The notes beneath the pieces are model-generated. The model was given only the letters and a program-made list of their open reading frames with translations. It was not told the origin of the DNA and made no database searches. The position numbers and the translations under genes were made by a program. Below, piece after piece: positions 1,448 through 39,052 of a DNA stretch of 44,295 nucleotides. The first letter of the stretch is position 1; each line of letters begins with the position of its first letter. The stretch is from the UHGV virus genome UHGV-0091795; one strand, written 5' to 3'. This DNA is from a virus.

Positions 1448-3337
1448 ATGAAATCCGAAACGCTAACCATCCAGCAACTTTTCCAAAATCAACGACAATA
1501 TCGTGTTCCATTCTATCAACGTGCCTACGTATGGACGCAACAAAACCAATGGTCAGCTTTGCTGGAGGATATCTTCGAAAAAGCACATAGCCGACTTTTG
1601 GGAACAAAACCAACTCCCCATTTCCTTGGCGCGGTGGTGCTGGAACCTCAACTCAAAAACAGCTTGTTAGGTGTAGATACCATACATATTATTGACGGCC
1701 AGCAACGTTTAACCACTCTTCAATATATTCTGGCATCCATTCGATTATCATTGCGTGCTACAGGCCTTTCTGATTTGGAAGGGTTAGTATTGACTTGCTT
1801 GAAAAATACAAACGAAGCAACTATGCGAAATAAAAAGGTAGAATGCTTCAAACTGTGGCCAACTTTTCGAGACCAAACTCATTTTATTCAAAGTTTTAAT
1901 GTTGAAAACATTGACGATCTCCGTGATGTATTTTCTGATAGCTTCACGCAACATGGTACGTTACGTAAACATTTCAACCACCCGCCGTCACTAGAGGCAT
2001 TATGGTTTTTTACTGAAGCCTTTATAAAATGGATTAAAATAGAAAAGTACTCACCACATGAAAATGCTGTAGCACTAATTGAGGCTGTCTTGACGGATCT
2101 GAAACTGGTAAGCATATTTCTCGAAGCTGAAGATGATGCCCAAATAATTTTTGAAACATTAAATGGCCGAGGGGCGGAACTTCATGCCACGGATCTTATT
2201 CGCAACTACATCTTTATGTGCGCTGAGCATGAAAATATTAATGCTATTGAATTATATGAAAATGAGTGGAAGAGCTTTGAAGATACATACTGGTCGGAAA
2301 GGCAACGCCGTGGACGTATTAATAAACCACGCATGGAGTGGCTAGTGCATGCGACATTGCAATCAGAAAGGCAACGTGAAATTGATCTGTCTCGTCTTTA
2401 CAATGAGTATCGTGATTATGTAAGTAAGGACTTGCCTTCACAACGAGCTGATCTGCAAGTAAAGCGCCTCAAACAATATGCATCACAATATAAAGAATTG
2501 GTTGGTGGTTTTGGCACAACCCCCATCTCACACTTTGGACATCGCATCGCAGCCTATGATGTGACGACACTTTATCCGCTTGCTTTGTTCATTTCGATAG
2601 CTAACATCGCCGATGGTGAGAAAGCAGCCATGTATAATGATCTTGTCTCCTACGTAGTACGAAGAGCCGTATGTGGCCTGACGCCAAAGAATTACAACAA
2701 TGTATTTATGAATGTATTGCGGCACTTGTCTAAAACGGAAATTTCCAGTGTTGAGTTACGTAATATCCTCAATAGCTTAAATGGCGAAGCCTCACGTTGG
2801 CCTGGTGACTCAGAATTTCTCAATGCTTGCATCAATGCTCCACTTTATCCTGGCAGGCTCGACGCACCGAAAATGCGCTCAATGTTAACGGAACTTGAAA
2901 GAGAACTTTGTCGCCAAGTGAAGACAGAGAAGCCTGATGTTCCAAATCTTTCCAATCTCGATATCGATCATCTTATGCCTCAAAGTTGGTATTCCTGTTG
3001 GCCTCTCGAAAATGGTCATATGGTGACAAATTCAGATGCAACGGTATTGAACCAAATTGTTCTGTCTGGAACAGATCTTACCCCTGAACAGCTACTGGTA
3101 AGGAAACGGCAACAAGCGATAGCTACGTTGGGAAATCTAACTTTGCTTAACCTTAGCGTAAACCGTTCTGTTCAGAATGCTGTATTTCTGAAAAAACGTG
3201 ATGCTCTCATCGTCCACACCAATCTACGACTGAACATACCACTTATACTTAAGGATAAATGGGATGAAGGTGAAATCCTGGAGCGGGGTAAAAAGTTGGG
3301 GGAAATTGCATTGAAAGTATGGCCAAAACACAATTAA
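1448..3337 (+). CDS. GmrSD-like type IV (modification-dependent) restriction endonuclease, DUF262 N-terminus + DUF1524 C-terminus
   Basis: 629-aa ORF. N-terminus has YQRAYVW and the DGQQR(LTT) signature of DUF262/ParB-like NTPase domains; C-terminus has DIDHLMPQSW, a His-Me finger (DUF1524-like) motif. Confidence 0.7.
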   Translation: MKSETLTIQQLFQNQRQYRVPFYQRAYVWTQQNQWSALLEDIFEKAHSRLLGTKPTPHFLGAVVLEPQLKNSLLGVDTIHIIDGQQRLTTLQYILASIRLSLRATGLSDLEGLVLTCLKNTNEATMRNKKVECFKLWPTFRDQTHFIQSFNVENIDDLRDVFSDSFTQHGTLRKHFNHPPSLEALWFFTEAFIKWIKIEKYSPHENAVALIEAVLTDLKLVSIFLEAEDDAQIIFETLNGRGAELHATDLIRNYIFMCAEHENINAIELYENEWKSFEDTYWSERQRRGRINKPRMEWLVHATLQSERQREIDLSRLYNEYRDYVSKDLPSQRADLQVKRLKQYASQYKELVGGFGTTPISHFGHRIAAYDVTTLYPLALFISIANIADGEKAAMYNDLVSYVVRRAVCGLTPKNYNNVFMNVLRHLSKTEISSVELRNILNSLNGEASRWPGDSEFLNACINAPLYPGRLDAPKMRSMLTELERELCRQVKTEKPDVPNLSNLDIDHLMPQSWYSCWPLENGHMVTNSDATVLNQIVLSGTDLTPEQLLVRKRQQAIATLGNLTLLNLSVNRSVQNAVFLKKRDALIVHTNLRLNIPLILKDKWDEGEILERGKKLGEIALKVWPKHN

Positions 3338-22846: not shown

Positions 22847-23197
22847 TTACTTCAGCCGTTCACGGGCCGTCTTCGCCTTATGACACGGCCAGCACAGACT
22901 CTGCAGATTATTGTCGGCATCAGTGCCGCCATGCGCTTTAGGGATGATGTGGTCAACGGTTTTTGCTTCACGCACCACGCCAGCACGCTGGCATAACTGA
23001 CATAAACCTTTGTCACGCTTCAGCACGCGCGCGCGGATAACGTCCCACTTCGAACCATAACCGCGCTGATGACGGGACTGACCTGGCTTGTATTGCTTCC
23101 AGCCTTCGCTTTTGTGGCTTTCGCAGTAGCCTGAAGGATCTGTGGTGGTATGGCGGCAGCCGCGAAAACGGCAGGCTTTTGGGGTTCGTGGTGGCAT
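22847..23197 (-). CDS. HNH endonuclease (packaging-associated)
   Basis: 116-aa ORF with Cys-rich zinc-finger and HNH-like motifs (DHIIPKAHGG ... CWPCH) immediately upstream of the terminase genes, as in HK97-like phages. Confidence 0.7.
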   Translation of the reverse strand: MPPRTPKACRFRGCRHTTTDPSGYCESHKSEGWKQYKPGQSRHQRGYGSKWDVIRARVLKRDKGLCQLCQRAGVVREAKTVDHIIPKAHGGTDADNNLQSLCWPCHKAKTARERLK

Positions 23198-23299
23198 TTA
23201 AAGTGGGATCTAACTCTAATAATTTAAAAAATTTAATTGGGTCTTGATATTAATCACATAGACTCAATGCTCTTTAGTTCTTACATAGGTGGTTGTATT

Positions 23300-23467
23300 A
23301 TGAGTATCCCCAGTTTAGATGTTCATAAAGTTGTTAAGTGCGCGGAGCATAAAAAGGCTTTAGATGCAATATCTCTCAAACTTAAGAATAACATTATTGA
23401 CTCAAGCACTGAATGCGATTTTCTTGGCGACACAATAATTTTCAATCAAGATAAAAAAATAGGTTAA
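23300..23467 (+). CDS. hypothetical protein (AT-rich islet; possible 5' part of a frameshifted gene)
   Basis: ATG at 23300 preceded by aggtgg; the ORF ends just after an A7 run at 23453-23459. Confidence 0.3.
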   Translation: MSIPSLDVHKVVKCAEHKKALDAISLKLKNNIIDSSTECDFLGDTIIFNQDKKIG

Positions 23468-23739
23468 CCCTCAAACTTTCAACATATGAACTAGAACTTA
23501 TTTTCAAAGAAACACTGCTGATCATTGATGACGCTCCTGTATTGAAGTTTGCTGCCATTGACCCAACCGATGAAAATAACAACGAGTTGATTGGTTTATT
23601 TTTATCCAAAAATGGATTTATTTATATTAGAGAATACAAATCCGAGCAACGTTATGAATATGGCGACACTTCTCTATTTTTACATATACTTGACGCTACT
23701 CTTAAAGAGCTTAAAGCTGCAAACAAAATATCCTATTAA
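23455..23739 (+). CDS. hypothetical protein (AT-rich islet; possible 3' part of a frameshifted gene)
   Basis: Open frame from 23455 with no in-frame ATG before a TTG at 23542; it is in the -1 frame relative to the upstream ORF across the A7 run. Confidence 0.3.
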   Translation, partial: KNRLTLKLSTYELELIFKETLLIIDDAPVLKFAAIDPTDENNNELIGLFLSKNGFIYIREYKSEQRYEYGDTSLFLHILDATLKELKAANKISY

Positions 23740-23917
23740 ATAAATTTTTGCTAACATAGCCCCTCGCCATGACAAGATTTTCTGTTCTAGATGCAAGGGC
23801 TATGTGTGAATATCTATAAACAAAAACCCCATCCGGTGATTTTTGTCATTTTTTAGCCATCTCAATTGCGGCATCAAAAAGTCGTTCAAGAATAAAATCA
23901 GGGTACTGTAATTTTTC

Positions 23918-24160
23918 TTACTCGATATGAAGCTTATAAATTTTTCTTCCCCACTCCCATTTAAAATCAAATCCAGAAGCAGAAGGTGCGAAATGTATTT
24001 TAGCTTTAGGGTTAGCGTAACCAGCAACAGTCAACACATCAAACTTAAAATCTTGAGGTTTAATACGCATAGTCATATCCTTTACCAAGTTCATCATTAT
24101 TCTTCGCGAGAATAAAACAATGAATAAAATCATTAAAGCATAGACGTTAAATATCCTCAA
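23918..24160 (-). CDS. hypothetical small protein downstream of Rz
   Basis: 80-aa AT-rich ORF on the late-gene strand immediately after Rz; unrecognised. Confidence 0.3.
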   Translation of the reverse strand: MRIFNVYALMILFIVLFSRRIMMNLVKDMTMRIKPQDFKFDVLTVAGYANPKAKIHFAPSASGFDFKWEWGRKIYKLHIE

Positions 24161-24167
24161 AATGTGA

Positions 24168-24626
24168 TTAGTTGGGACATTGCGTCCTGATATACTCCTG
24201 CAAGTAATTCACCTGTGAGGTTATCTTGTCGATTCCACTTCGGAGACGGTAATAATTGAGTTCAGCATCTGCTGTAAGTCCTGGGCTTTCTCCATCGCCC
24301 ATGCCGCTGGCTCCGGTCGTTGACTTTGCACAGGTGGCGGCGACTTGCAGGCGCTTACGCCCAGCAGAAACATCAGCACGGAGACTTTCGATAGTCGCGT
24401 TAGCATCAGCAAGCTCCTTTGTGTATCTTGCGTCGAGTTCTGCTACATCACGTTGACGCTTCCGCATGTCAGCGATGGTGGCGTTCGCCTTCTCCAGTTC
24501 ACTGGCCTTGTTATCGCGCTGCTCCTTGTAGGCGATTGCGTTATCACGGTAATGATTAACAGCCAATGACAGGCAGACGATGATGCAGATAACCAGAGCG
24601 GAGATAATCGCGGTTACTCTGCTCAT
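24168..24626 (-). CDS. Rz: i-spanin Rz
   Basis: [20 protein letters not shown]... with N-terminal TM segment and coiled-coil body, closely resembling lambda Rz. Confidence 0.85.
24221..24412 (-). CDS. Rz1: o-spanin Rz1 (embedded in the +1 frame of Rz)
   Basis: Signal peptide with lipobox (LGVSAC) followed by a proline-rich segment ([15 protein letters not shown]), embedded in Rz like lambda Rz1. Confidence 0.7.
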
Positions 24627-25120
24627 TGTTTCCCCCACAAACAGACTTCACGCTCAATCTCACGGCGAGTCATCAGTCCTTTCCATTGATTACCGCCAGC
24701 GTATGTCCAGCGCCGTAGCTGATCACATGCGCCTTTAATATCACCCTGGTTTATTTTGCGAAGAAGCGTCGATGTTCTGAAATTGCCAGCACCCACGTTG
24801 TAGACGAACGAGTAAAGAGCGCCGCGCGTTGTTTCCGGTATATCGACTTTGATGTACGGGTTAATTTGTCTGGCGACAGTGGCAAGGTCTTTATTCAAGA
24901 GTGCTTTGCATTCTGCTTTGGTATACGTTTTACCGAGCATGATGTCTTTTCCTGTATGCCCGTGACATACAGTCCATACACCAACAATATCTTTGTATGG
25001 TATGTAGCTGACACCTTCCAGACCATCGTTACCACTTGGGCCAGTGATTAACACTGATGCTATAGCAATTGCTCCGCCACCAATAGCAGCAGCAACGGCT
25101 TTTCGTAATGATGGAGGCAT
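24623..25120 (-). CDS. R: SAR endolysin (phage 21 R-like lysozyme)
   Basis: 165-aa ORF with an N-terminal Gly/Ala-rich signal-anchor-release segment ([18 protein letters not shown]) and a lysozyme domain; closely resembles phage 21 R. Confidence 0.85.
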
Positions 25121-25335
25121 TATTCACCTCTCGCAGCCTTGCGCTTATCTTCTTTAATCTTGAAATAAAGGTTTGTCAGGTACGTCAGCAGGCCAAATAC
25201 CAGGCTACCCAGCACACCTATTGCTGCCCACTGTGAGGGCGTGACTTTATCGAGCAGCTGTAAAAACCAGTAGCCAGCACTGCCTGCGGAGGTGCCGTAG
25301 GCAATGCCCGTTGTTAACTTATCCATGGATTTCAT
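25120..25335 (-). CDS. S: pinholin (phage 21 S-like class II holin)
   Basis: 71-aa ORF with two TM segments and a charged C-terminus ([13 protein letters not shown]), and a dual-start Met-Lys...Met arrangement, like S21. Confidence 0.85.
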
Positions 25336-25522
25336 AGCCTCACCTCCGCAAATAACGGATGGTGTACACGGTTCGGAACGAAGAGGAAAGGTATAGAAGT
25401 TACATTAGCGTAAGGCTTGAACATCTATTCAAAAAGAAAAACGCCGCGATTATTCTGGCGTAGCTGAAAGCATCATACAATTATCAAATACGAAAATTAC
25501 AAAATCATTAAAACGCATCACG

Positions 25523-26263
25523 TTACATCATGTTTTTTTCTAAAAAAAATCTTGATGAATATTGATGGGGAGGAACACCAAAATACCTTCTGAAAACACT
25601 TACAAAATATGACGTGTTTTCATAACCGCATATCTCAGCAACTTTTCCAACAGAATATAAATTGTAGCTTAATAACCTTTCCGCCATCACCATTCGCTCT
25701 TCAAGAATTAACTTACTAAATGATAAGCCTTCGTCTTTTAATTTTCTTTTTAACAAACTCTCGCTCATATATAATCTTGAAGATATATCACAAAGTCTCC
25801 ATGACGCTGAGATATCCGTGTGAATAATAGCCTTAACTTTACTTCCCAAACTATTAAGACATCCAAATAAAAAACTTTGCACTATTTTCTCTGAAGATAA
25901 GATAGCAAGACATGCAAGTGATATTTGATTTCTAACAAAATCCACAGTTCTGCCATCACAATTCAAGCATGCAATCAAGTTCTTTAACAATGAAAAATCT
26001 TCACATTCCACCATCAAGTATGCCGGATAAAACCTTCTTACAGAAAAAGGTGAGAGTGTGTTGCTTTTAAAGAAATCATTAACTGTTTTCTCTTCAACAT
26101 CTACGATCATTACATGATCTACATTTGATGAAAAAAAATCTTTTAAATTGTAATCAATGAGAACAGCACTTCCTTTTTTAAACAAAATATCTTCTTTACC
26201 AATTCGGACATCAAACGAGTTCAACACCAAAATGATAGAACATATGTATGGCATATTATCCAC
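25523..26263 (-). CDS. AraC-family transcriptional regulator (moron)
   Basis: 246-aa AT-rich ORF whose C-terminus (VGKVAEICGYENTSYFVSVFRRYFGVPPHQY) is a classic AraC-type HTH. Confidence 0.7.
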   Translation of the reverse strand: MDNMPYICSIILVLNSFDVRIGKEDILFKKGSAVLIDYNLKDFFSSNVDHVMIVDVEEKTVNDFFKSNTLSPFSVRRFYPAYLMVECEDFSLLKNLIACLNCDGRTVDFVRNQISLACLAILSSEKIVQSFLFGCLNSLGSKVKAIIHTDISASWRLCDISSRLYMSESLLKRKLKDEGLSFSKLILEERMVMAERLLSYNLYSVGKVAEICGYENTSYFVSVFRRYFGVPPHQYSSRFFLEKNMM

Positions 26264-26359
26264 CTGATATCATTGGGGTTACACCAGGTAAGTATAGGTG
26301 AAATGATCTTACCCAGCAATAGTGGACACGCGGCTAAGTGAGTAAACTCTCAGTCAGAG

Positions 26360-26668
26360 GTGACTCACATGACAAAAACAGTATCAACCAGTAAAAAACC
26401 CCGTAAACAGCATTCGCCTGAATTTCGCAGTGAAGCCCTGAAGCTTGCTGAACGCATCGGTGTTACTGCCGCAGCCCGTGAACTCAGCCTGTATGAATCA
26501 CAGCTCTACAACTGGCGCAGTAAACAGCAAAATCAGCAGACGTCTTCTGAACGTGAACTGGAGATGTCTACCGAGATTGCACGTCTCAAACGCCAGCTGG
26601 CAGAACGGGATGAAGAGCTGGCTATCCTCCAAAAGGCCGCGACATACTTCGCGAAGCGCCTGAAATGA
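26360..26668 (+). CDS. insE: IS3 transposase OrfA
   Basis: 102-aa [35 protein letters not shown]... with HTH and leucine zipper, matching IS3 OrfA. Confidence 0.9.
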
Positions 26669-27531
26669 AGTATGTCTTTATTGAAAAACATCAGGCTGAG
26701 TTCAGCATCAAAGCAATGTGCCGCGTGCTCCGGGTGGCCCGCAGCGGCTGGTATACGTGGTGTCAGCGGCGGACAAGGATAAGCACGCGTCAGCAGTTCC
26801 GCCAACACTGCGACAGCGTTGTCCTCGCGGCTTTTACCCGGTCAAAACAGCGTTACGGTGCCCCACGCCTGACGGATGAACTGCGTGCTCAGGGTTACCC
26901 CTTTAACGTAAAAACCGTGGCGGCAAGCCTGCGCCGTCAGGGACTGAGGGCAAAGGCCTCCCGGAAGTTCAGCCCGGTCAGCTACCGCGCACACGGCCTG
27001 CCTGTGTCAGAAAATCTGTTGGAGCAGGATTTTTACGCCAGTGGCCCGAACCAGAAGTGGGCAGGAGACATCACGTACTTACGTACAGATGAAGGCTGGC
27101 TGTATCTGGCAGTGGTCATTGACCTGTGGTCACGTGCCGTTATTGGCTGGTCAATGTCGCCACGCATGACGGCGCAACTGGCCTGCGATGCCCTGCAGAT
27201 GGCGCTGTGGCGGCGTAAGAGGCCCCGGAACGTTATCGTTCACACGGACCGTGGAGGCCAGTACTGTTCAGCAGATTATCAGGCGCAACTGAAGCGGCAT
27301 AATCTGCGTGGAAGTATGAGCGCAAAAGGTTGCTGCTACGATAATGCCTGCGTGGAAAGCTTCTTTCATTCGCTGAAAGTGGAATGTATCCATGGAGAAC
27401 ACTTTATCAGCCGGGAAATAATGCGGGCAACGGTGTTTAATTATATCGAATGTGATTACAATCGGTGGCGGCGGCACAGTTGGTGTGGCGGCCTCAGTCC
27501 GGAACAATTTGAAAACAAGAACCTCGCTTAG
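26665..27531 (+). CDS. insF: IS3 transposase OrfB (DDE catalytic domain)
   Basis: 288-aa ORF overlapping orfA in the -1 frame, the IS3 frameshift arrangement; contains a DDE integrase-core region. Confidence 0.9.
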
Positions 27532-27866
27532 GCCTGTGTCCATATTACGTGGGTAGGATCAAAAAATCAATATTCGCCAGTTCAACAATAAGGAAAATTT
27601 CATTGCATCACAAGTATAAAATTATGTATTTAACTCACAAAGACAAATTATTAAACCAATCTGTTATATTATATATAGCTGCGTGGAATCATAATATTAT
27701 ATATTTTGACTGGCATGTTTACCAACTTTAAGTTGCATCTCAATTGTTTCTTCAGCGTAAACAGAGTTTTTATACAAACTGACACTCTGGGTATCATAGT
27801 GTAGTTTTTACGATTGTAAATATCCTGTATGCAGGAACTCATCCTTTTGGATGATATCGCATACAA

Positions 27867-28826
27867 TTAATTTACCATCAGTCTTAGAGCCAGTTCGTCC
27901 GGATAGGGATCGAAGTAATTCTGTGTAAGCAAGTAATCATTAGGATACTCACCCAGATAATGCTTCAGCAGAGTCAACGGCGCAAGAAGAGGTAATGTGC
28001 CAGAACGATAGTTAAGTATAACCTCGCTCAACTCTTTACGCTGGCGTGTACTTAAGTAGTTACTAAAATACCCCTGTATATGCATCAGCACATTCGTGTG
28101 ATTTTTACGTGATGCAGGTTTTCTGAGAATCGCCATCAGCTTATCACGATACACCTCAAAGTATGATTCAAGATCCGCCCACTCGTGTATTGCAGCCACA
28201 AATGGTCCCATATCTTTATAGCCTGTCTGATTATGCGCCAACAACTGAAGCTTATAACGACTATGAAAAGCCAATAACTCTCTTCTTGATAATTTCTCCT
28301 TGTAAAGGTGATTGAGCTCATGCAAAGCAAAAACTCTTTCAACAAAATTCTCACGAAGCACTGGATCATGTAATCGCCCATCCTCTTCAACCGGTAGCCA
28401 GGAAAACTTTTCCATCAAAGTGCTCGTAAATAGTCCCACTCCATCTTTACGACCTCGATTACCATTTTCATCATAGACACGCACGCGCTCCATGCCACAG
28501 CTGGGAGATTTAGCACAAACCACAAACCCCGATACATCCTTTAATTTGTCCATATAAGAACGACTAAACTCTGTCATTCTCTCTGTCACATCCTCATTCT
28601 GGTCGTGGCTGAAACACATCCGTATATTTCCTTGCGTCGAGCGCACAAGACGTAGAGCAGGACGCGGAACTGGCAGCCCTATAGCCATTTCCGGACATAC
28701 TGGTCTGAATGTTACCCATTCCACTAATTTGTCCATTAAAAAGTCAGCTCTTTTGTGACCACCATCAAAACGAACAGCAGAACCGGCCAAACAACCGCTG
28801 ATTCCAATCACAGGTTTTTTTATCAT
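27867..28826 (-). CDS. DUF523/DUF1722-family protein (moron)
   Basis: 319-aa ORF; N-terminus MIKKPVIGISGCLAGSAVRFDGGH matches the Cys-containing DUF523-type start, followed by a DUF1722-like C-terminal part. Lies in AT-rich surroundings. Confidence 0.55.
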   Translation of the reverse strand: MIKKPVIGISGCLAGSAVRFDGGHKRADFLMDKLVEWVTFRPVCPEMAIGLPVPRPALRLVRSTQGNIRMCFSHDQNEDVTERMTEFSRSYMDKLKDVSGFVVCAKSPSCGMERVRVYDENGNRGRKDGVGLFTSTLMEKFSWLPVEEDGRLHDPVLRENFVERVFALHELNHLYKEKLSRRELLAFHSRYKLQLLAHNQTGYKDMGPFVAAIHEWADLESYFEVYRDKLMAILRKPASRKNHTNVLMHIQGYFSNYLSTRQRKELSEVILNYRSGTLPLLAPLTLLKHYLGEYPNDYLLTQNYFDPYPDELALRLMVN

Positions 28827-29018
28827 ATCCTCCCCCTTGACTAATTCATTAACACATAAACTGTGTAGTGCACGGAATAAATTGCCTTTCTGGCGTCATC
28901 ACTGACAATTTTTCTGTTATGGACTATTCCTAATATAGTATGAAAGTTCTTTAAGTGATCGGTCGTAATCATCTATCTTTCATACTTACTCTCAACTATC
29001 AAAAGTACAGGATTTATT

Positions 29019-29543
29019 ATGAAGTTATGGCCTGTGTTGACTGGCATTGCGCTCTCTTTCACTCTTATAGCATGTAAGGCCCCGACACCACCTAAAGGTG
29101 TGCAGCCGATTACAAATTTTGACGCCAACCGCTACCTCGGAAAATGGTATGAAATAGCTCGCCTCGAGAACCGGTTCGAACGTGGTCTGGAACAGGTCAG
29201 CGCTACTTATGGAAAACGGAACGACGGAGGGATTCGTGTACTTAACCGTGGATACGATCCAACGAAAAATAAATGGAGCGAGAGCGAAGGTAAAGCATAC
29301 TTTACTGGAGATACTAAAACTGCAGCGTTGAAGGTTTCGTTTTTTGGCCCCTTCTATGGTGGCTATAATGTAATCAAACTGGATGATGAGTATAAGTATG
29401 CTCTTGTCAGTGGTCCGAACAGAGAATACCTATGGATTCTGGCAAGGACCTCAACTATTCCAGATAAAGTAAAAGCAGACTATGTGCGAACCGCTCAAAA
29501 GTTGGGATTCAATGTCAATGAATTATTATGGGTTAAACAATAA
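29019..29543 (+). CDS. blc: outer-membrane lipocalin (Blc-like lipoprotein)
   Basis: 174-aa ORF with lipoprotein signal (LIAC) and strong similarity to E. coli Blc (NFDANRYLGKWYEIARLENRFERGLE ... KVSFFGPFYGGYNVI). Confidence 0.8.
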   Translation: MKLWPVLTGIALSFTLIACKAPTPPKGVQPITNFDANRYLGKWYEIARLENRFERGLEQVSATYGKRNDGGIRVLNRGYDPTKNKWSESEGKAYFTGDTKTAALKVSFFGPFYGGYNVIKLDDEYKYALVSGPNREYLWILARTSTIPDKVKADYVRTAQKLGFNVNELLWVKQ

Positions 29544-29571
29544 AATCCCTACCCGAAATGATACTTATTAG

Positions 29572-29598
29572 AAAAAAACCAGCCTTTGGGGAGGCTGG
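29572..29598 (-). terminator. intrinsic terminator downstream of Q (tR'-like), also positioned after blc
   Basis: Hairpin ccagcc-tttgggga-ggctgg preceded on the plus strand by A7, so it is followed by T7 on the minus strand. Confidence 0.6.
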
Positions 29599-29698
29599 CT
29601 AAATCAGGAAACAAGCTGTTATATGATAATAACTACGTTGCGATTCCAACATTTAAAATGTTAGACTAATGACAATCAGACAGCAACTTTTCCTTTAA

Positions 29699-30090
29699 TT
29701 ATTTCGAACAATCAGCATCCATCTCCAATCGGAGATCCAACACCATCAGCATACCCTCCACTACGCCCTCAGCTTTCTGGAGCATCCTGCCAACCCAACA
29801 ATCAGATCGCCCATGTTTACGTGCAAGCGCCATAAACGTCATGCCGCCGACATAATAGTCCACCAATAAATCATGCAAATCGCTGTTGTTCTTTTTCAGA
29901 CGGCCATGCACCCGCAAATGATCATCGCGTCATCGTCACAACATTGTGGGCGAGATTTTACTTTTGAAGGAATTAATCCCTTAAAACCGGCGGCAATGGA
30001 CGACCAGGTCACATCTTCATGATTATTAGCCGCCCACGCTCCCCAACGCTCAAGAACCATCTGAATATCACGCATCAACTTACTCCACAA
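29699..30090 (-). pseudogene. late-gene antiterminator Q (phage 82/DLP12 QuuD-like), interrupted by a -1 frameshift
   Basis: Two overlapping ORFs (29896-30090 N-terminal part with Cys cluster [14 protein letters not shown]; 29699-29917 C-terminal part [13 protein letters not shown]...) read as one protein if a single base is restored at about 29917. Confidence 0.6.
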
Positions 30091-30297
30091 AAATCAGACC
30101 AGAACGCCAATTACAAGCAAAAATCAACAAAACAGTATTAGTTGATTGTTATCTCTGACTTCATACTCCTGCTCCTGTCAGGGTTTTGGCGTAATTCTTC
30201 AGTATTCGGTAATCGGTCAAAACAGAACCGGGGAAACGATATAAGCGCAGACGCCCCCAGCGGTGGCGAAGAAGTTCTGCCATATAAAACTCAAACA

Positions 30298-30660
30298 TCA
30301 TTCATTCCCCATTTCGGTGATGGTCAGTTCCAGCCTCCCACCTTTGGTAACAGGCATCTTCACAACGCGGTAATCAACGACCTGAGCATCATCCAGCCAG
30401 AAACCTGCTTTGGTGAGTGCGTCAAAAGCGGCTTTTTGCAGATTATCCAGGTCACGGCGACGGCGATCCGGCATGTGGCACTCAATACGGATTTTCACTG
30501 GCATAGCCAGGCCGATATCCAGCATTGCGTTTTTAATGATTCGGGTGACGTTATCGCGGTATGCCTGCCCTTCTGCGCTGATGTGTGTGCGCCCGCGATT
30601 ATGGCGGTAGTAGCGGTTATTGCTCGGCGGCCAGGGTAGTGTGATGTGGTAAGTATTCAC
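30298..30660 (-). CDS. rusA: Holliday-junction resolvase RusA
   Basis: 120-aa [39 protein letters not shown]..., the RusA family signature, in the nin region. Confidence 0.85.
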
Positions 30661-30947
30661 GCCTTAATTACCCCCTCTTTCAGCCAGATAACCTGCGTTC
30701 TCGCCATACCTTCCAGCGCGCATTCTTTTGCATATCCAGCGTTAACAAAATTCGTGCGACGGTCGATCTCATCGTGACAGGCAGAACATGCAATGGTGGC
30801 AATCAGGTCTGGCGGTTTAATACCGGTGCCGCACAATCCAGCCAGCCGGATATGTGCCAGTACAGACGTTTCAGGATTGCCATTACATACGCCAGGGATT
30901 CTTACCTGGCATTCCCGACCACGCGCTGCTTTTCTCAAATCAGCCAT
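30657..30947 (-). CDS. YbcO-like protein (DUF1364, putative nuclease)
   Basis: Cys-rich ORF starting at MADLRK with an upstream aggagg RBS, in the nin-region position of DLP12 ybcO. Confidence 0.55.
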
Positions 30948-31086
30948 GGTTCCTCCTTGCTGCCAGTCGCAACCATTTTTTATCAACCAGGCTGGCGGTA
31001 TATCCGAGCAGTGTTGGTATTTCGGATGGTTTCAGCTCAGGCTTACGCTTACGACGATTTGGTACTCTGTAGATGTGTCCGCTCAT
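30940..31086 (-). CDS. ninE: NinE-like small protein
   Basis: 48-aa ORF found by manual translation ([48 protein letters not shown]), basic N-terminus, in the nin-region position. Confidence 0.5.
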   Translation of the reverse strand: MSGHIYRVPNRRKRKPELKPSEIPTLLGYTASLVDKKWLRLAARRNHG

Positions 31087-31991: not shown

Positions 31992-33494
31992 ATGACTCAA
32001 ACTCCTCTATTACTTGCAATCATATTTTTATTGGTTGTTCTTGTTCTTTATATAGCTGCAATCAAACGCATCAAAAAAATACAATTAGAATTAAGTGATA
32101 GCAATCAAAAAAATGAAGAATACAAATCTCGCTTTGCAGATTATTTTAATGTAGAAGAAGAATGTAAGAAGCTTATTGAGAAAACAGAGCAAGAATGCTC
32201 CATAATAAAAGAAGAATCCCTAAAAGTAAAAGAAAATGCCAATAATGAACTAACAAACACCATTGAAAAAATGGATGGTATCAATAAACAAATCCAAGAG
32301 CTAAGAAGAACTTATAAAGAGAAGAAAGAAATATATGATAAACTAGTAAGGCAAATTTCTATTTATTCAGAAGATGTTGAGCTAGCCGAACTAGGATTTT
32401 ACGAACCTCATTTTAATTTTGAAGATTCAGAGCAATTTAAAAACAAAATAAAATCCATCAGGGATGAACAGAAATTAATGCTGCGGGATAAAACCCACTC
32501 TGGCGCAGTATATTGTACAACCCAATGGACTGTTGAAGGCTCTCGAGCAGAGGGTAAAAAAATGACAGACAGAAATATCAGGCTAACTACTAGAGCATTT
32601 AATAATGAATGTGATGCTGCAATTAGCAATTGCACGTGGAAAAACATCACTAAAATGGAAGAACGCATCACAAAGGCATTTGAGGCCATAAATAAACTAA
32701 ACGAGCAAAATCACATATATATAAACACTAAATACCTCAATAAAAAACTTGAGGAATTGTGGCTTACCCATGAATATCGTGAGCAAAAACAGAAAGAAAA
32801 AGAAGAACAGGCAGAAATAAGGGCACAAATGAGAGAGGAGGAGCGTGCACAACGAGAAATAGAAAAGGCCATGCAAGACGCAGAGGCAGAAGAGCGCCGT
32901 TATAAAAAAGCAATTGAAGCTGCAAGAAAGGAAATGGAAAAAGTTACTGGTGACATGAAGCAGCGCCTCGAAAATCGCATTGCCGAACTAGAACAGAGTT
33001 TGTCGCAGGCTGAATCAAAGCATCAAAGAGCATTATCCATGGCACAACAAACCAAACAAGGTCATGTTTATATTATTTCGAACATAGGTTCTTTTGGGGA
33101 GAATGTTTATAAAATAGGCATGACACGACGTCTTGATCCGCAAGACCGTGTAAATGAGCTCGGTGATGCATCTGTTCCTTTTATTTTTGATGTACATGCC
33201 ATGATTTATTCGGAGGACGCTCCATCATTAGAAAAAAAACTACATGATGTCTTCGATAAAAAGAGAGTCAATCTTGTAAATCGTAGAAAAGAGTTTTTCT
33301 ATGTTACTCTGGATGAGATCAAAGAAGCTGTTAAAAAACACTCTGATTCAGAAATTGAATTTATTGAGACAGCAGTCGCAAAAGACTTTAATGAGTCATT
33401 GGCTATTCGTAATCATGAAAATAAAAAAAGTGACAACAGCAACTCATCAATTATACCTGAGCGAAAAACCCCAGAGTTTGCAGATGCAATTTAA
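31992..33494 (+). CDS. membrane-anchored coiled-coil protein with C-terminal T5orf172/GIY-YIG-like domain (DUF4041-like architecture)
   Basis: 500-aa AT-rich ORF. It has an N-terminal TM helix (LLLAIIFLLVVLVLYIAAI), a long Lys/Glu-rich coiled-coil, and a C-terminal block GHVYIISNIGSFGENVYKIGMTRRLDPQDRVNELGD...FFYVTLDEIKEAV typical of the T5orf172 (GIY-YIG superfamily) domain. Transcribed opposite to the flanking early-right genes. Confidence 0.6.
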   Translation: MTQTPLLLAIIFLLVVLVLYIAAIKRIKKIQLELSDSNQKNEEYKSRFADYFNVEEECKKLIEKTEQECSIIKEESLKVKENANNELTNTIEKMDGINKQIQELRRTYKEKKEIYDKLVRQISIYSEDVELAELGFYEPHFNFEDSEQFKNKIKSIRDEQKLMLRDKTHSGAVYCTTQWTVEGSRAEGKKMTDRNIRLTTRAFNNECDAAISNCTWKNITKMEERITKAFEAINKLNEQNHIYINTKYLNKKLEELWLTHEYREQKQKEKEEQAEIRAQMREEERAQREIEKAMQDAEAEERRYKKAIEAARKEMEKVTGDMKQRLENRIAELEQSLSQAESKHQRALSMAQQTKQGHVYIISNIGSFGENVYKIGMTRRLDPQDRVNELGDASVPFIFDVHAMIYSEDAPSLEKKLHDVFDKKRVNLVNRRKEFFYVTLDEIKEAVKKHSDSEIEFIETAVAKDFNESLAIRNHENKKSDNSNSSIIPERKTPEFADAI

Positions 33495-36627: not shown

Positions 36628-36656
36628 TTGACCATCAATACGCAAGCGTATAAATT
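36628..36656 (+). promoter_or_regulatory. pRM-like promoter for cI (near-leaderless transcript)
   Basis: -35 TTGACC (36628-36633) with a TATAAAT-like -10 at about 36649-36656, only a few nt before the cI ATG at 36664. Confidence 0.4.
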
Positions 36657-36663
36657 AAAACTT

Positions 36664-37356
36664 ATGAAAAAAGAAACTCTTGCTGATCGCTTAAACCTAG
36701 CGATGGAACAATCTGGAATGTCTCAAGGCGCTCTTGCAAAGGCGTCTGGCGTAGCTCAACCCACAATCTGGAGACTGACAAGCGGCAACGCGCGCGGCTC
36801 AACAAAAATTGTTGAAATAGCTAATGCATTGGGTGTTCGAACAGAGTGGCTTTCATCAGGCATAGGCCCGATGAGAAATGACGGTCAACAATCAGGAAAG
36901 CCTGCTGTCAACCATTCCAAATACTTCAAGATTGACGTTCTTGATATAGAAGTCAGTGCTGGGCCGGGTGTCATCAACCGTGAGTTTGTAGAAGTCCTAC
37001 GCTCGGTTGAGTACTCGTTTGACGATGCTCGTCACATGTTCGATGGCAGGAAGGCAGAAAATATCCGCATCATTAACGTACGCGGTGACAGCATGTCAGG
37101 AACGATCGAACCAGGTGATCTGCTGTTCGTTGATATCACTGTTAAATCTTTCGACGGTGATGGTATCTATGCGTTTCTGTACGACGACACTGCCCATGTA
37201 AAGCGCCTGCAAATGATGAAGGATAAGCTGCTGGTTATCTCTGATAACAAGAGCTACTCACCGTGGGATCCGATCGAGAAAGACGAGATGAACCGAGTGT
37301 TCATCTTTGGGAAAGTTATTGGGAGTATGCCTCAGACATATAGGAAGCATGGTTAA
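36664..37356 (+). CDS. cI: CI-like repressor (HTH + S24 LexA-like autopeptidase domain)
   Basis: N-terminal HTH (MSQGALAKASGVAQPTIWRL) and C-terminal S24 motifs (VRGDSMSGTIEPGDLLFVD, HVKRL Ser/Lys dyad). Confidence 0.8.
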   Translation: MKKETLADRLNLAMEQSGMSQGALAKASGVAQPTIWRLTSGNARGSTKIVEIANALGVRTEWLSSGIGPMRNDGQQSGKPAVNHSKYFKIDVLDIEVSAGPGVINREFVEVLRSVEYSFDDARHMFDGRKAENIRIINVRGDSMSGTIEPGDLLFVDITVKSFDGDGIYAFLYDDTAHVKRLQMMKDKLLVISDNKSYSPWDPIEKDEMNRVFIFGKVIGSMPQTYRKHG

Positions 37357-37478
37357 AGTGAGGCTAAAAAACAGTTACAGCAATAGGCCTGTTGTTTTTC
37401 TTTAAACACGCAGTGTTAAACCGCTCTTTGAGATGCGGAGTAATGAGATGGAAGACTTGAATCACATAAGGGTTAGTG

Positions 37479-38228
37479 ATGGAGTGCGTAGCGAGCAGCA
37501 ATAGTGCAATACCTAATGTCGTTGAGGTAATACGTCGCATCAATGAAGGTTCCACTCAGCCATTTCTTTGCAAATGTGATGATGGGCAGTTGTATGTTTT
37601 GAAGTCAAAACCATCAATGCCCCCGAAAAATCTCTTAGCTGAGTTCATTTCGGCGTGTTTGGCTAATGATATCGGCCTTCCTTTACCTGACTTTAAAATC
37701 GTATTTGTGCCAGAGGAACTTATAGAGTACTCACCTGATCTGCAGCAACAAATTTGTACAGGATATGCCTTTGCTTCATTGTTCATTGACGGTGCAATAG
37801 CGTTAACGTTTACGCAGTCAAGAAACGAAACGATCATCCCAGTCGAACAGCAAAAATTAATCTATGTTTTTGATAAATGGATATTAAATGCAGACAGAAC
37901 GCTTACTGACAAAGGTGGAAACGTTAACATCCTTTATGACATCAGTAACGATAAGTATTATCTGATTGACCATAATCTCTCATTTGATCAGAATGCTGGA
38001 CCTGAAGATTTTTCTGTGCACGTGTACGGCCCTGGTAACCGCAAATGGCAATATGATTTAGTGGATCGCGTAGAGTACCGCCAGAGGGTCGTTAACAGTT
38101 TACACAAGCTTCCTGCTATCCTTGACGAAATTCCAGAAGAGTGGATAGTAGATGAGGAGTTTTTACCTTTTGTCTGCACTACGCTAGACAAAGGTGATTG
38201 TGATGAATTTTGGAGCGCAATAGAATGA
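37479..38228 (+). CDS. kinase-like protein (tentative HipA/PI3K-like catalytic core), first gene of the immunity-region cassette
   Basis: 249-aa ORF directly downstream of cI on the same strand; contains YYLIDHNLSFD, reminiscent of catalytic loops of HipA/PI3K-like atypical kinases. Family assignment is tentative. Confidence 0.45.
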   Translation: MECVASSNSAIPNVVEVIRRINEGSTQPFLCKCDDGQLYVLKSKPSMPPKNLLAEFISACLANDIGLPLPDFKIVFVPEELIEYSPDLQQQICTGYAFASLFIDGAIALTFTQSRNETIIPVEQQKLIYVFDKWILNADRTLTDKGGNVNILYDISNDKYYLIDHNLSFDQNAGPEDFSVHVYGPGNRKWQYDLVDRVEYRQRVVNSLHKLPAILDEIPEEWIVDEEFLPFVCTTLDKGDCDEFWSAIE

Positions 38229-39052
38229 CAACTCCATGCCTATATAGCATCGTTCGCTATGCGCCTTATGCGGAGACTGAAGAGTTCGCAAACATAGGCG
38301 TACTTCTGTGCGCGCCAAAAGAAAATTACTTTGATTTCCAGCTCACAAAGCGAAATGACTCTCGTGTAAAGAATTTTTTCCATGATGATTGTATTTTCCC
38401 TGTAGCAAAAGACTCAATACAAAGAGAACTACAGTTCGCAAAAATGCATGCGACCCAGATTGTTGGACATCAACAACTTGCACAATTCTTCAGATATTTT
38501 ACAAACAAAAAAGAATCAATTTTTCAGTTCAGTTCTACGAGAGTGATTCTCAGCGAAAACCCAAAAGAAGAGCTGGCCCGCATTTACAATAAATATGTAA
38601 ACCACTCTGACTACACAAAAGAGCGCCGTGAAGATGTTCTAGCCAGAGAGCTAAAACGAAGTATCGATAGAATAGATGGATTGAAGAACGTCTTCAAACA
38701 AGCAACCATTGATGGGTATTTCGCAAAGTTCTCAATGCCATTGGTCGCCAAGAAGCATGACAGGATCCAATGTGCCATCAAACCTCTGGCATTCACTCAA
38801 GCTGAACCAGGAAAAATGATGGAGCATAGTGATACTTGGGTGATGAGAATAACTCGAGCAGCAGAAGAAAACCTGCTTTCACTTGATGACATTTTATTCA
38901 CAATTGAAACTCCTGAATCACCAAACTCAGGCCAAAGCAAAGTTATTGACATCATAAAGAGAACTATGGATGCTAAGAAAATAAATCATATACCTGCATC
39001 CAACCACAAAGAAACTATTGATTTTGCAAAAAAAATACTTCCCCAAGTTTAA
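38225..39052 (+). CDS. DUF3037-like protein, second gene of the immunity-region cassette
   Basis: ATG overlaps the upstream stop (ATGA). N-terminus LYSIVRYAPYAETEEFANIGVLL fits the DUF3037-type pattern (Y.I.RY.P....EEF.N.GV.L). Confidence 0.55.
   Translation: MTTPCLYSIVRYAPYAETEEFANIGVLLCAPKENYFDFQLTKRNDSRVKNFFHDDCIFPVAKDSIQRELQFAKMHATQIVGHQQLAQFFRYFTNKKESIFQFSSTRVILSENPKEELARIYNKYVNHSDYTKERREDVLARELKRSIDRIDGLKNVFKQATIDGYFAKFSMPLVAKKHDRIQCAIKPLAFTQAEPGKMMEHSDTWVMRITRAAEENLLSLDDILFTIETPESPNSGQSKVIDIIKRTMDAKKINHIPASNHKETIDFAKKILPQV

Follow-up and report, generated by a model that had tools for sequence, protein, structure and literature searches.

What does an AraC-type regulator gene carried by a prophage next to its lysis genes do for the bacterium that hosts it, and can the copy described here still do it? 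The gene lies on the minus strand of virus genome UHGV-0091795, a stretch of 44,295 nucleotides (hereafter the window) that represents a prophage with an integrase, a CI-like repressor, terminase, tail genes and a contractile-tail sheath. The reading we favour, with a probability of about 0.55, is that the gene encodes an activator resembling PatE and the Psr proteins of Escherichia coli prophages, that it belongs to a three-gene cassette and would act on the acid-resistance genes of the GAD regulon, and that the window copy has been orphaned by an IS3 insertion sequence in its promoter together with a frameshift in the antiterminator gene Q.

The gene and its ribosome-binding site are placed as follows.

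25523-26254, minus strand: AraC/XylS-family regulator gene, 243 aa from the ATG at 26254.
26260-26265, minus strand: Shine-Dalgarno sequence AGGTGG, 5 nt upstream of that ATG, read from the sequence.

The open reading frame (ORF) is unbroken over 25523-26263 on the minus strand and encodes 246 aa if read from a GTG, as the original prediction had it. That GTG (26263-26261) falls within the Shine-Dalgarno sequence and would add three residues. Near-identical genes in RefSeq begin at the ATG equivalent to window position 26254 (732 nt, 243 aa), AGGTGG is kept across all alleles aligned, and residue 1 of the 243-aa form is where the alignments with PatE, GadW, AppY and YdeO start. Because the RefSeq starts, the spacing of AGGTGG and its overlap with the GTG, and the alignment of the relatives all agree, the start codon is likely the ATG at 26254 rather than the GTG at 26263, and the gene is 9 nt shorter than predicted; the ORF stands, its start and length do not. 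The AT-richness that had been noted is borne out, with a GC content of 31.7%, compared with 49% over the whole window and 49.4% in the lysis genes next to it. Its placement was likewise described correctly, between a copy of IS3 upstream and a P21-type holin gene 187 bp downstream on the same strand.

That the ORF is genuine and its product of AraC type is supported by matches to Pfam HTH_18 (PF12833; E = 2.3e-15, 57.1 bits, cut-off 33.6) and HTH_AraC (PF00165; E = 1.2e-11, 44.9 bits, cut-off 26.6), both over residues 161-237, by the wide occurrence of near-identical genes and by the intactness of 80 of the 81 copies examined. The C-terminal domain superposes on the DNA-binding domains of GadX, MarA and AraC, which places the protein in the AraC/XylS family. 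Among NCBIfam models the best match is the YdeO model NF007407, aligned over positions 1-234 of its 253 at 127.6 bits, below the equivalog cut-off of 348. The GadX equivalog NF007432 (88.7 bits against a cut-off of 500) and the HilD and HilC models match the C-terminal part only. A profile search of the PDB with the protein and its relatives returned the GadX DNA-binding domain at 5.7e-35, Rns and CsvR at about 1e-24 and ToxT at 6e-16, and the match to Rns spans residues 68-234.

The AlphaFold model of the protein (pLDDT 84.7, pTM 0.76) has an N-terminal beta domain with strands at residues 3-54 and 79-82, a helical linker and a DNA-binding domain of seven helices, the helical part starting at residue 87. 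This is the two-domain layout of regulators of the Rns, ToxT and GadX type, which are about 240-280 aa long. CsvR, Rns and ToxT account for all of the best 21 PDB matches, over about 245-255 columns; these full-length structural matches reach template modelling (TM) scores of 0.52-0.58 at a probability of 1.0 and Foldseek E values of 7e-12 to 9e-9, although identity over the structural alignment is 16-20%. The C-terminal half of the model matches the GadX DNA-binding domain with TM scores of 0.84-0.90 and 41-42% identity, and of the solved structures the GadX crystal structure 3MKL fits that domain best. As modelled, the product is a full-length two-domain AraC/XylS activator with an Rns/ToxT-like fold and a GadX-like DNA-binding domain. 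In Rns and ToxT the carboxylate-binding residues of the fatty-acid pocket are H20/R75 and K31/K230, respectively.

A homology search against known prophage AraC regulators had been suggested as a check on the original prediction. For this, annotated genomes supplied the relatives' sequences, and the comparison was made locally.

PatE (Z0321/ECs_0287), prophage CP-933H/Sp1 of E. coli O157:H7: 53% identity over 235 residues, E 3e-88.
PsrA (ECs_1087), Sakai Sp4: about 40% full-length, 49% over the C-terminal 159 residues.
GadW, K-12: 34% identity.
AppY, K-12: 32% identity.
YdeO, K-12: 32% identity.
GadX, K-12: 41% identity, DNA-binding domain only.

The check thus comes out in favour of the prediction, with both PatE and PsrA recovered and a first recognition helix that is nearly identical. 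The N-terminal domain is 40% identical to that of PatE and the DNA-binding domain 70%, and recognition helix 1, SESLLKRKLKDE, agrees with PatE at 11 of 12 residues and with two proteins of the Psr clade (P0023 and P0025) at all 12. Identity to the PsrA clade in the N-terminal domain is 22-28%, and homology to AppY, GadW and YdeO is full-length at 31-34%. An N-terminal MxxxCS(V/I) motif is shared with the regulator as well. Being prophage-encoded and homologous to PatE and PsrA over its full length, the protein falls in the PatE/Psr group, and by sequence it is of one subfamily with GadW, YdeO, AppY, PatE and PsrA/PsrB. It forms its own clade there and is therefore a paralog of PatE and PsrA rather than an ortholog. 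The subfamily is small, as only 10 of 1.84 billion cluster representatives at 50% identity match at E <= 1e-30.

PatE is equal in length, has the same two-domain layout and is prophage-borne, but it is found by itself close to the end of Sp1, a decayed prophage, outside the slot between Q and the holin gene S and without ybgA or lipocalin genes. PsrA, like the window gene, has Q upstream of it in a lambdoid prophage; the PsrA/PsrB clade is more distant, however, and has tRNA genes and a NanS-p esterase for neighbours instead of the lipocalin and YbgA genes. AppY is prophage-borne as well (DLP12) but sits at the far end of that prophage, outside the Q-S slot, whereas GadW, GadX and YdeO are chromosomal genes.

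We infer that ECs_0287 is PatE from its being the sole AraC homolog in Sakai Sp1/OI-8. ECs_1087 was taken as PsrA following the locus tag in PMC13502914 and compared after extension to an upstream ATG; its RefSeq annotation is 195 aa long, and starting from an ATG in frame 42 codons further upstream extends this to a full-length protein of 237 aa. Reviews place PsrA at z1789 (OI-50), a location we rejected, as tblastn finds no AraC homolog in Sakai Sp6 (the potBC prophage) or in EDL933 CP-933N from the integrase to the tape-measure gene. For PsrB (z2104, OI-57), no homolog was found in the first 50 kb of the Sakai region holding Sp9. A protein called PatE in E. coli Nissle 1917 (CIW80_12240, NZ_CP022686; bioRxiv 10.1101/2025.08.01.668021) was dropped as evidence, as it is probably not prophage-borne. 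By gene order CIW80_12240 lies about 43 genes before xylH, which puts it near the gad island and not in a prophage.

What the characterised relatives do is consistent with a role in acid resistance. PatE is reported to activate gadE, gadBC and hdeAB and to lower expression of LEE, the enterocyte-effacement locus (PMC10877973). PatE, PsrB and AppY are described in PMC10877973 and PMC10057817 as activating gadE and hdeAB and increasing acid survival, and AppY is a direct activator of gadE and gadY (PMC10057817). PsrA and PsrB are reported to reduce type III secretion by way of GadE and YhiF (PMC10877973, PMC13502914). The precedent invoked in the original prediction, that AraC regulators of prophages reprogramme acid resistance or virulence, is therefore apt, with PatE, PsrA and AppY reported to act on the GAD regulon (PMC10877973, PMC10057817). 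By the same analogy, reprogramming of acid resistance or virulence by the present regulator is plausible, and a PatE/Psr-like activator of host acid-resistance genes is its best-supported function, at roughly even odds.

How would the gene be transcribed? Comparison of upstream regions points to a promoter of its own, the parts of which now lie on both sides of IS3.

26291-26296, minus strand: putative -10 hexamer TATACT, starting 42 nt upstream of the ATG, from comparative conservation.
27575-27580, minus strand: putative native -35 hexamer CTGGCG, from homology to PatE TTGGCA and P0013 TTGGTA.
27586-27610, minus strand: conserved upstream block, from alignment with IS-free alleles.
27562-27866, minus strand: displaced native upstream region, 305 bp, 29.8% GC, from alignment with IS-free alleles.

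TATACT or TATAAT occurs 39-42 nt before the ATG in all nine upstream regions compared, among them the clades at 97%, 87%, 81% and 64% identity, PatE, PsrA, P0013 and P0025. When the 97%, 87% and 81% alleles are aligned, the -10 sits in an invariant block, CCACCTATACTTAC, amid diverged flanks. A homologous TGGC-type -35 lies 17-18 nt further upstream in four clades (TTGGCA in PatE, TTGGTA in P0013, ATGGCA in the 81% clade and CTGGCG in the window clade), and nothing comparable is evident upstream of PsrA or P0025. The arrangement in PatE is much the same, with TTGGCA, an 18-nt spacer and TATACT beginning 39 nt before the ATG, and in PsrA a TATAAT starts 41 nt before the ATG. The putative promoter is thus proposed from comparison of the alleles and relatives.

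The original prediction treated IS3 as a neighbour of the gene. Its position was right, but it is no mere neighbour, since it splits the gene's putative promoter.

26304-27561, plus strand: IS3, 1258 bp, 99.9% identical to K-12 IS3C, with transposase domains.
26301-26303 and 27562-27564: 3-bp target duplication TTT, from the junctions against the IS-free allele.
26314-26319, minus strand: TTGCTG within the IS3 left inverted repeat (IRL), 17 nt upstream of TATACT, read from the sequence.

IS3 entered the putative promoter spacer, 49 bp before the ATG and 4 bp before TATACT, so that the -35, the conserved block and all 305 bp of native upstream DNA are now beyond the far side of IS3. The transposase reads away from the AraC gene, and the IRL abuts the promoter remnant. 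We considered the outward promoter of IS3 as a driver of the gene. In PMC8860574 both P3L and P3R point in the transposase direction, P3R being the documented outward promoter; it is directed away from the AraC gene and was ruled out on that ground. A weak hybrid promoter, made of TTGCTG in the IRL and the remaining TATACT, is a speculative alternative. TTGCTG matches the consensus -35 at three of six positions, which equals the native CTGGCG, but it retains the TTG.

The exact IS3 junction of the window is found in none of 5426 complete genomes. An independent insertion in strain DETEC-E601 lies 8 bp further up (57 bp before the ATG), likewise within the putative promoter spacer, and at least three more, in other E. 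coli genomes or contigs, are 415, 552 and 564 bp before the ATG. All these insertions share the orientation seen in the window, and some go with deletion of ybgA.

Q, from which late transcription would be expected to reach the regulator gene, is damaged too.

29699-30075, minus strand: Q antiterminator gene (QuuD-like), disrupted, from alignment with two intact alleles and translation.

One C has been lost near 29903 in a run of Cs, and the reading frame stops after 59 of 125 residues. If the frameshift is real, the cassette and the lysis genes are no longer reached by Q-dependent read-through, and the window prophage may be late-defective.

Between Q and the lysis genes the regulator does not stand by itself.

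29019-29543, plus strand (opposite to the regulator): cassette gene 1, Blc-like outer-membrane lipocalin, 174 aa, NCBIfam Blc subfamily at 313 bits, cut-off 267.
27867-28826, minus strand: cassette gene 2, fusion of TudS (2-thiouracil desulfurase) and DUF1722, 'YbgA family', 319 aa, PF04463 and PF08349.
24168-25335, minus strand: lysis cassette with holin S (25120-25335), endolysin (24623-25120), Rz (24168-24638) and embedded Rz1 (24221-24412).

The lysis genes were identified by the Pfam families Phage_holin_2_1, Phage_lysozyme and Phage_lysis and by ORFs. In the clade at least 81% identical to the window regulator, the three cassette genes always occur as a set with constant order. All IMG/VR loci with sufficient flank have the fixed order Q, lipocalin, YbgA, AraC, holin and endolysin, and the cassette order recurs in DLP12-like, Qin-like and lambda-like prophages and in phages Lambda_2G7a and IdasGreatGrand. 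In K-12 DLP12 the lysis genes (essD/rrrD/rzpD) form a cassette of the same type and Q is of the QuuD type, but nmpC fills the slot; the three-gene cassette is therefore dispensable cargo. The original prediction called the regulator a moron. Its foreign composition and the variable slot agree with that, but it does not travel alone: it comes last in a fixed lipocalin/YbgA/AraC cassette. In distant clades that have neither ybgA nor the lipocalin gene, P0013 comes directly after Q, P0025 before a NanS-p esterase gene, and PsrA between Q and tRNA genes; most of these clades still lie downstream of Q, PatE near the end of Sp1 being the exception. The window lipocalin is one residue off WP_000780581.1, a protein listed as Blc that a proteome contained and that increased 2-3 fold under meropenem (PMC13459554). 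PADLOC matched none of the three cassette proteins, and Rfam matched nothing in 23000-31000. No intrinsic terminator was found after the regulator gene, a hairpin with a T-run at about 25430-25460 being not significant (z = -0.65).

The clade is common and conserved in E. coli. Near-identical genes are present in 924-1039 of the 5426 complete E. coli genomes (17-19%), nearly always as a single chromosomal copy, and 122 IMG/VR contigs carry the regulator gene. Isolated temperate phages have it as well, namely IdasGreatGrand (97%) and the Lambda_ev/1H12 group (81%). Copies within the 243-aa clade give a ratio of nonsynonymous to synonymous substitution rates of 0.13, and comparison with the 237-aa clade gives 0.26, values indicating purifying selection on the clade. 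Among GTDB species representatives the sole close relative is on a 3.2-kb contig of a 'Nanosynbacter' metagenome-assembled genome, evidently E. coli contamination, and beyond E. coli genomes, coliphages and prophage-derived contigs the clade was not seen. PHROGs files the regulator, the lipocalin and YbgA all under 'unknown function', and the RefSeq label for the regulator is 'helix-turn-helix domain-containing protein' only. Searches by the RefSeq identifiers of the regulator and YbgA, and by the combination of lipocalin and AraC in a lambdoid moron, found no literature on the clade, which is apparently a separate one without prior study.

On the reading we favour, then, the regulator would be a two-domain activator carried as cargo of lambdoid prophages, where it comes last in a cassette that occupies the slot between Q and the holin gene. 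It would normally be transcribed by two routes, one from its own promoter, of the form (C/T)TGGC(G/A), a 17-18 nt spacer and TATACT, with a 5' untranslated region of about 35 nt, and the other by Q-dependent late read-through on induction. By analogy with PatE, PsrB and AppY, the product would most likely bind AT-rich sites at promoters of the gadE/hdeAB type. Judging from homology, glutamate-dependent acid resistance would go up, and type III secretion would be damped in LEE-positive strains. The window copy retains an intact coding sequence but would have lost its native -35, its upstream control and its late-operon drive, and it would be either silent or run from the weak IS3/TATACT hybrid promoter. 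Because IS3 splits the putative promoter and Q is frameshifted, expression of the window copy, and with it lysogenic conversion, is doubtful.

Several points weigh against this reading. Since the product fails the equivalog cut-offs for YdeO and GadX, its sequence indicates that none of the named regulators is its ortholog. Its assignment to the GAD regulon would follow from 53% identity to PatE and from alike recognition helices, and recognition helix 2 agrees with PatE at 9 of 13 positions and differs at 4. A consensus promoter scan of the native intergenic region gave 7 matches against 6.5 in shuffled sequence; as such scans do no better than shuffles, it is conservation that carries the promoter call. 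As for the Q frameshift, it falls in a short run of Cs and might be a sequencing error. Finally, the constant linkage to ybgA and the lipocalin gene within the clade could reflect a local rather than a host-wide role.

The last point leads to a rival that we find unlikely, though worth stating in full: the protein would regulate its own cassette, acting on the TudS/YbgA gene, the divergent lipocalin gene or both, perhaps in response to a small ligand of the N-terminal domain, with little effect on any host regulon. AraC-family regulators often adjoin their target genes, and here three genes stay together in one order throughout the clade of at least 81% identity. The N-terminal domain of the model has the ligand-binding fold of Rns and ToxT, and the cassette's lipocalin protein is detectably expressed in a lysogen (PMC13459554). 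On the other hand, related clades without these partners argue against a purely local role. The P0013, PsrA, P0025 and PatE copies have neither ybgA nor lipocalin yet keep the same -10, PatE and P0013 also keep the TGGC-type -35, and the characterised members of such partnerless clades act on host genes (PMC10877973). Very unlikely, in our estimate, is a regulator of the phage life cycle that tunes lysis or late genes or excludes superinfecting phage instead of converting the host. A place within the late operon, on the same strand as the holin gene 187 bp downstream, would suit such a role, as would that of the wider family downstream of Q (PatE in Sp1 excepted). However, the slot is polymorphic, and with nmpC occupying it in K-12 DLP12 the gene is dispensable for the phage cycle; its composition (31.7% GC against about 49%) is foreign to the phage backbone, PADLOC gives no match, and the characterised relatives control host genes.

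A different kind of alternative concerns this copy and not the family. The window gene may be an inert passenger, left untranscribed because IS3 occupies its promoter and Q is frameshifted, regardless of what other members of the family do; this is a serious possibility, to which we give somewhat better than one chance in three. IS3 sits 4 bp upstream of the -10 with the -35 and all upstream DNA displaced, its P3R promoter faces away from the gene according to PMC8860574 (Fig. 1B), Q stops at residue 59 of 125, and a scan of the minus strand over 25050-26420 found no consensus promoter. Yet the ORF, the Shine-Dalgarno sequence and the -10 are all intact, and the IRL puts TTGCTG exactly 17 nt upstream of TATACT, where it could form a hybrid promoter. 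Loss of AT-rich upstream DNA can relieve silencing by H-NS, and activation by insertion sequences is known for bgl and fucAO. Removal of the AT-rich region may thus lift silencing here, as the IS-driven activation of fucAO (PMC11894529) would suggest. Carried further, this would make the recurrent IS3 insertions a selected rewiring, in which the IRL replaces a -35 that was probably H-NS-silenced or activator-dependent and the hybrid promoter switches a silent regulator on; we regard that as improbable. Weaker still is the idea that lipocalin, TudS/YbgA and regulator form one ligand-sensing unit. A PatE/Psr-like cassette activator with an orphaned copy in the window is the reading we retain.

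Elsewhere the window prophage carries genes of other kinds, some with matches to defence systems.

1448-3337, plus strand: GmrSD-type type IV methyl-directed restriction enzyme, PADLOC mREase_IV at 1476 bits, adjoining the tail-fibre end.
31992-33494, plus strand: 500-aa DUF4041/T5orf172 protein, a full-length match to the PD-Lambda-1 defence protein (E 2e-198), its gene sitting in an island of 30-40% GC.
37476-39052, plus strand: HipA-like kinase and DUF3037 protein, directly after the CI-like S24 repressor (36628-37356), a weak match to the candidate defence pair PDC-M66A/B (E about 1e-15).
23198-24167: 970 bp of 33% GC with only small ORFs, between an HNH endonuclease gene and Rz.

The last of these stretches is present in 105 of the 5426 E. 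coli genomes, among them NU14, APEC O18, UM146 and IHE3034, and is annotated 'hypothetical protein'.

Prophage-borne AraC-like regulators such as PatE, PsrA/B and AppY are known to plug into the acid-resistance and virulence network of E. coli. The clade described here is found in about one in six sequenced E. coli and in viable temperate phages, and if it acts as PatE does, it would be a common and transferable modifier of survival in gastric acid. The disruption by IS3 of a putative promoter conserved across clades means, in turn, that presence of the gene is not the same as its expression when prophage cargo is scored from genomes.

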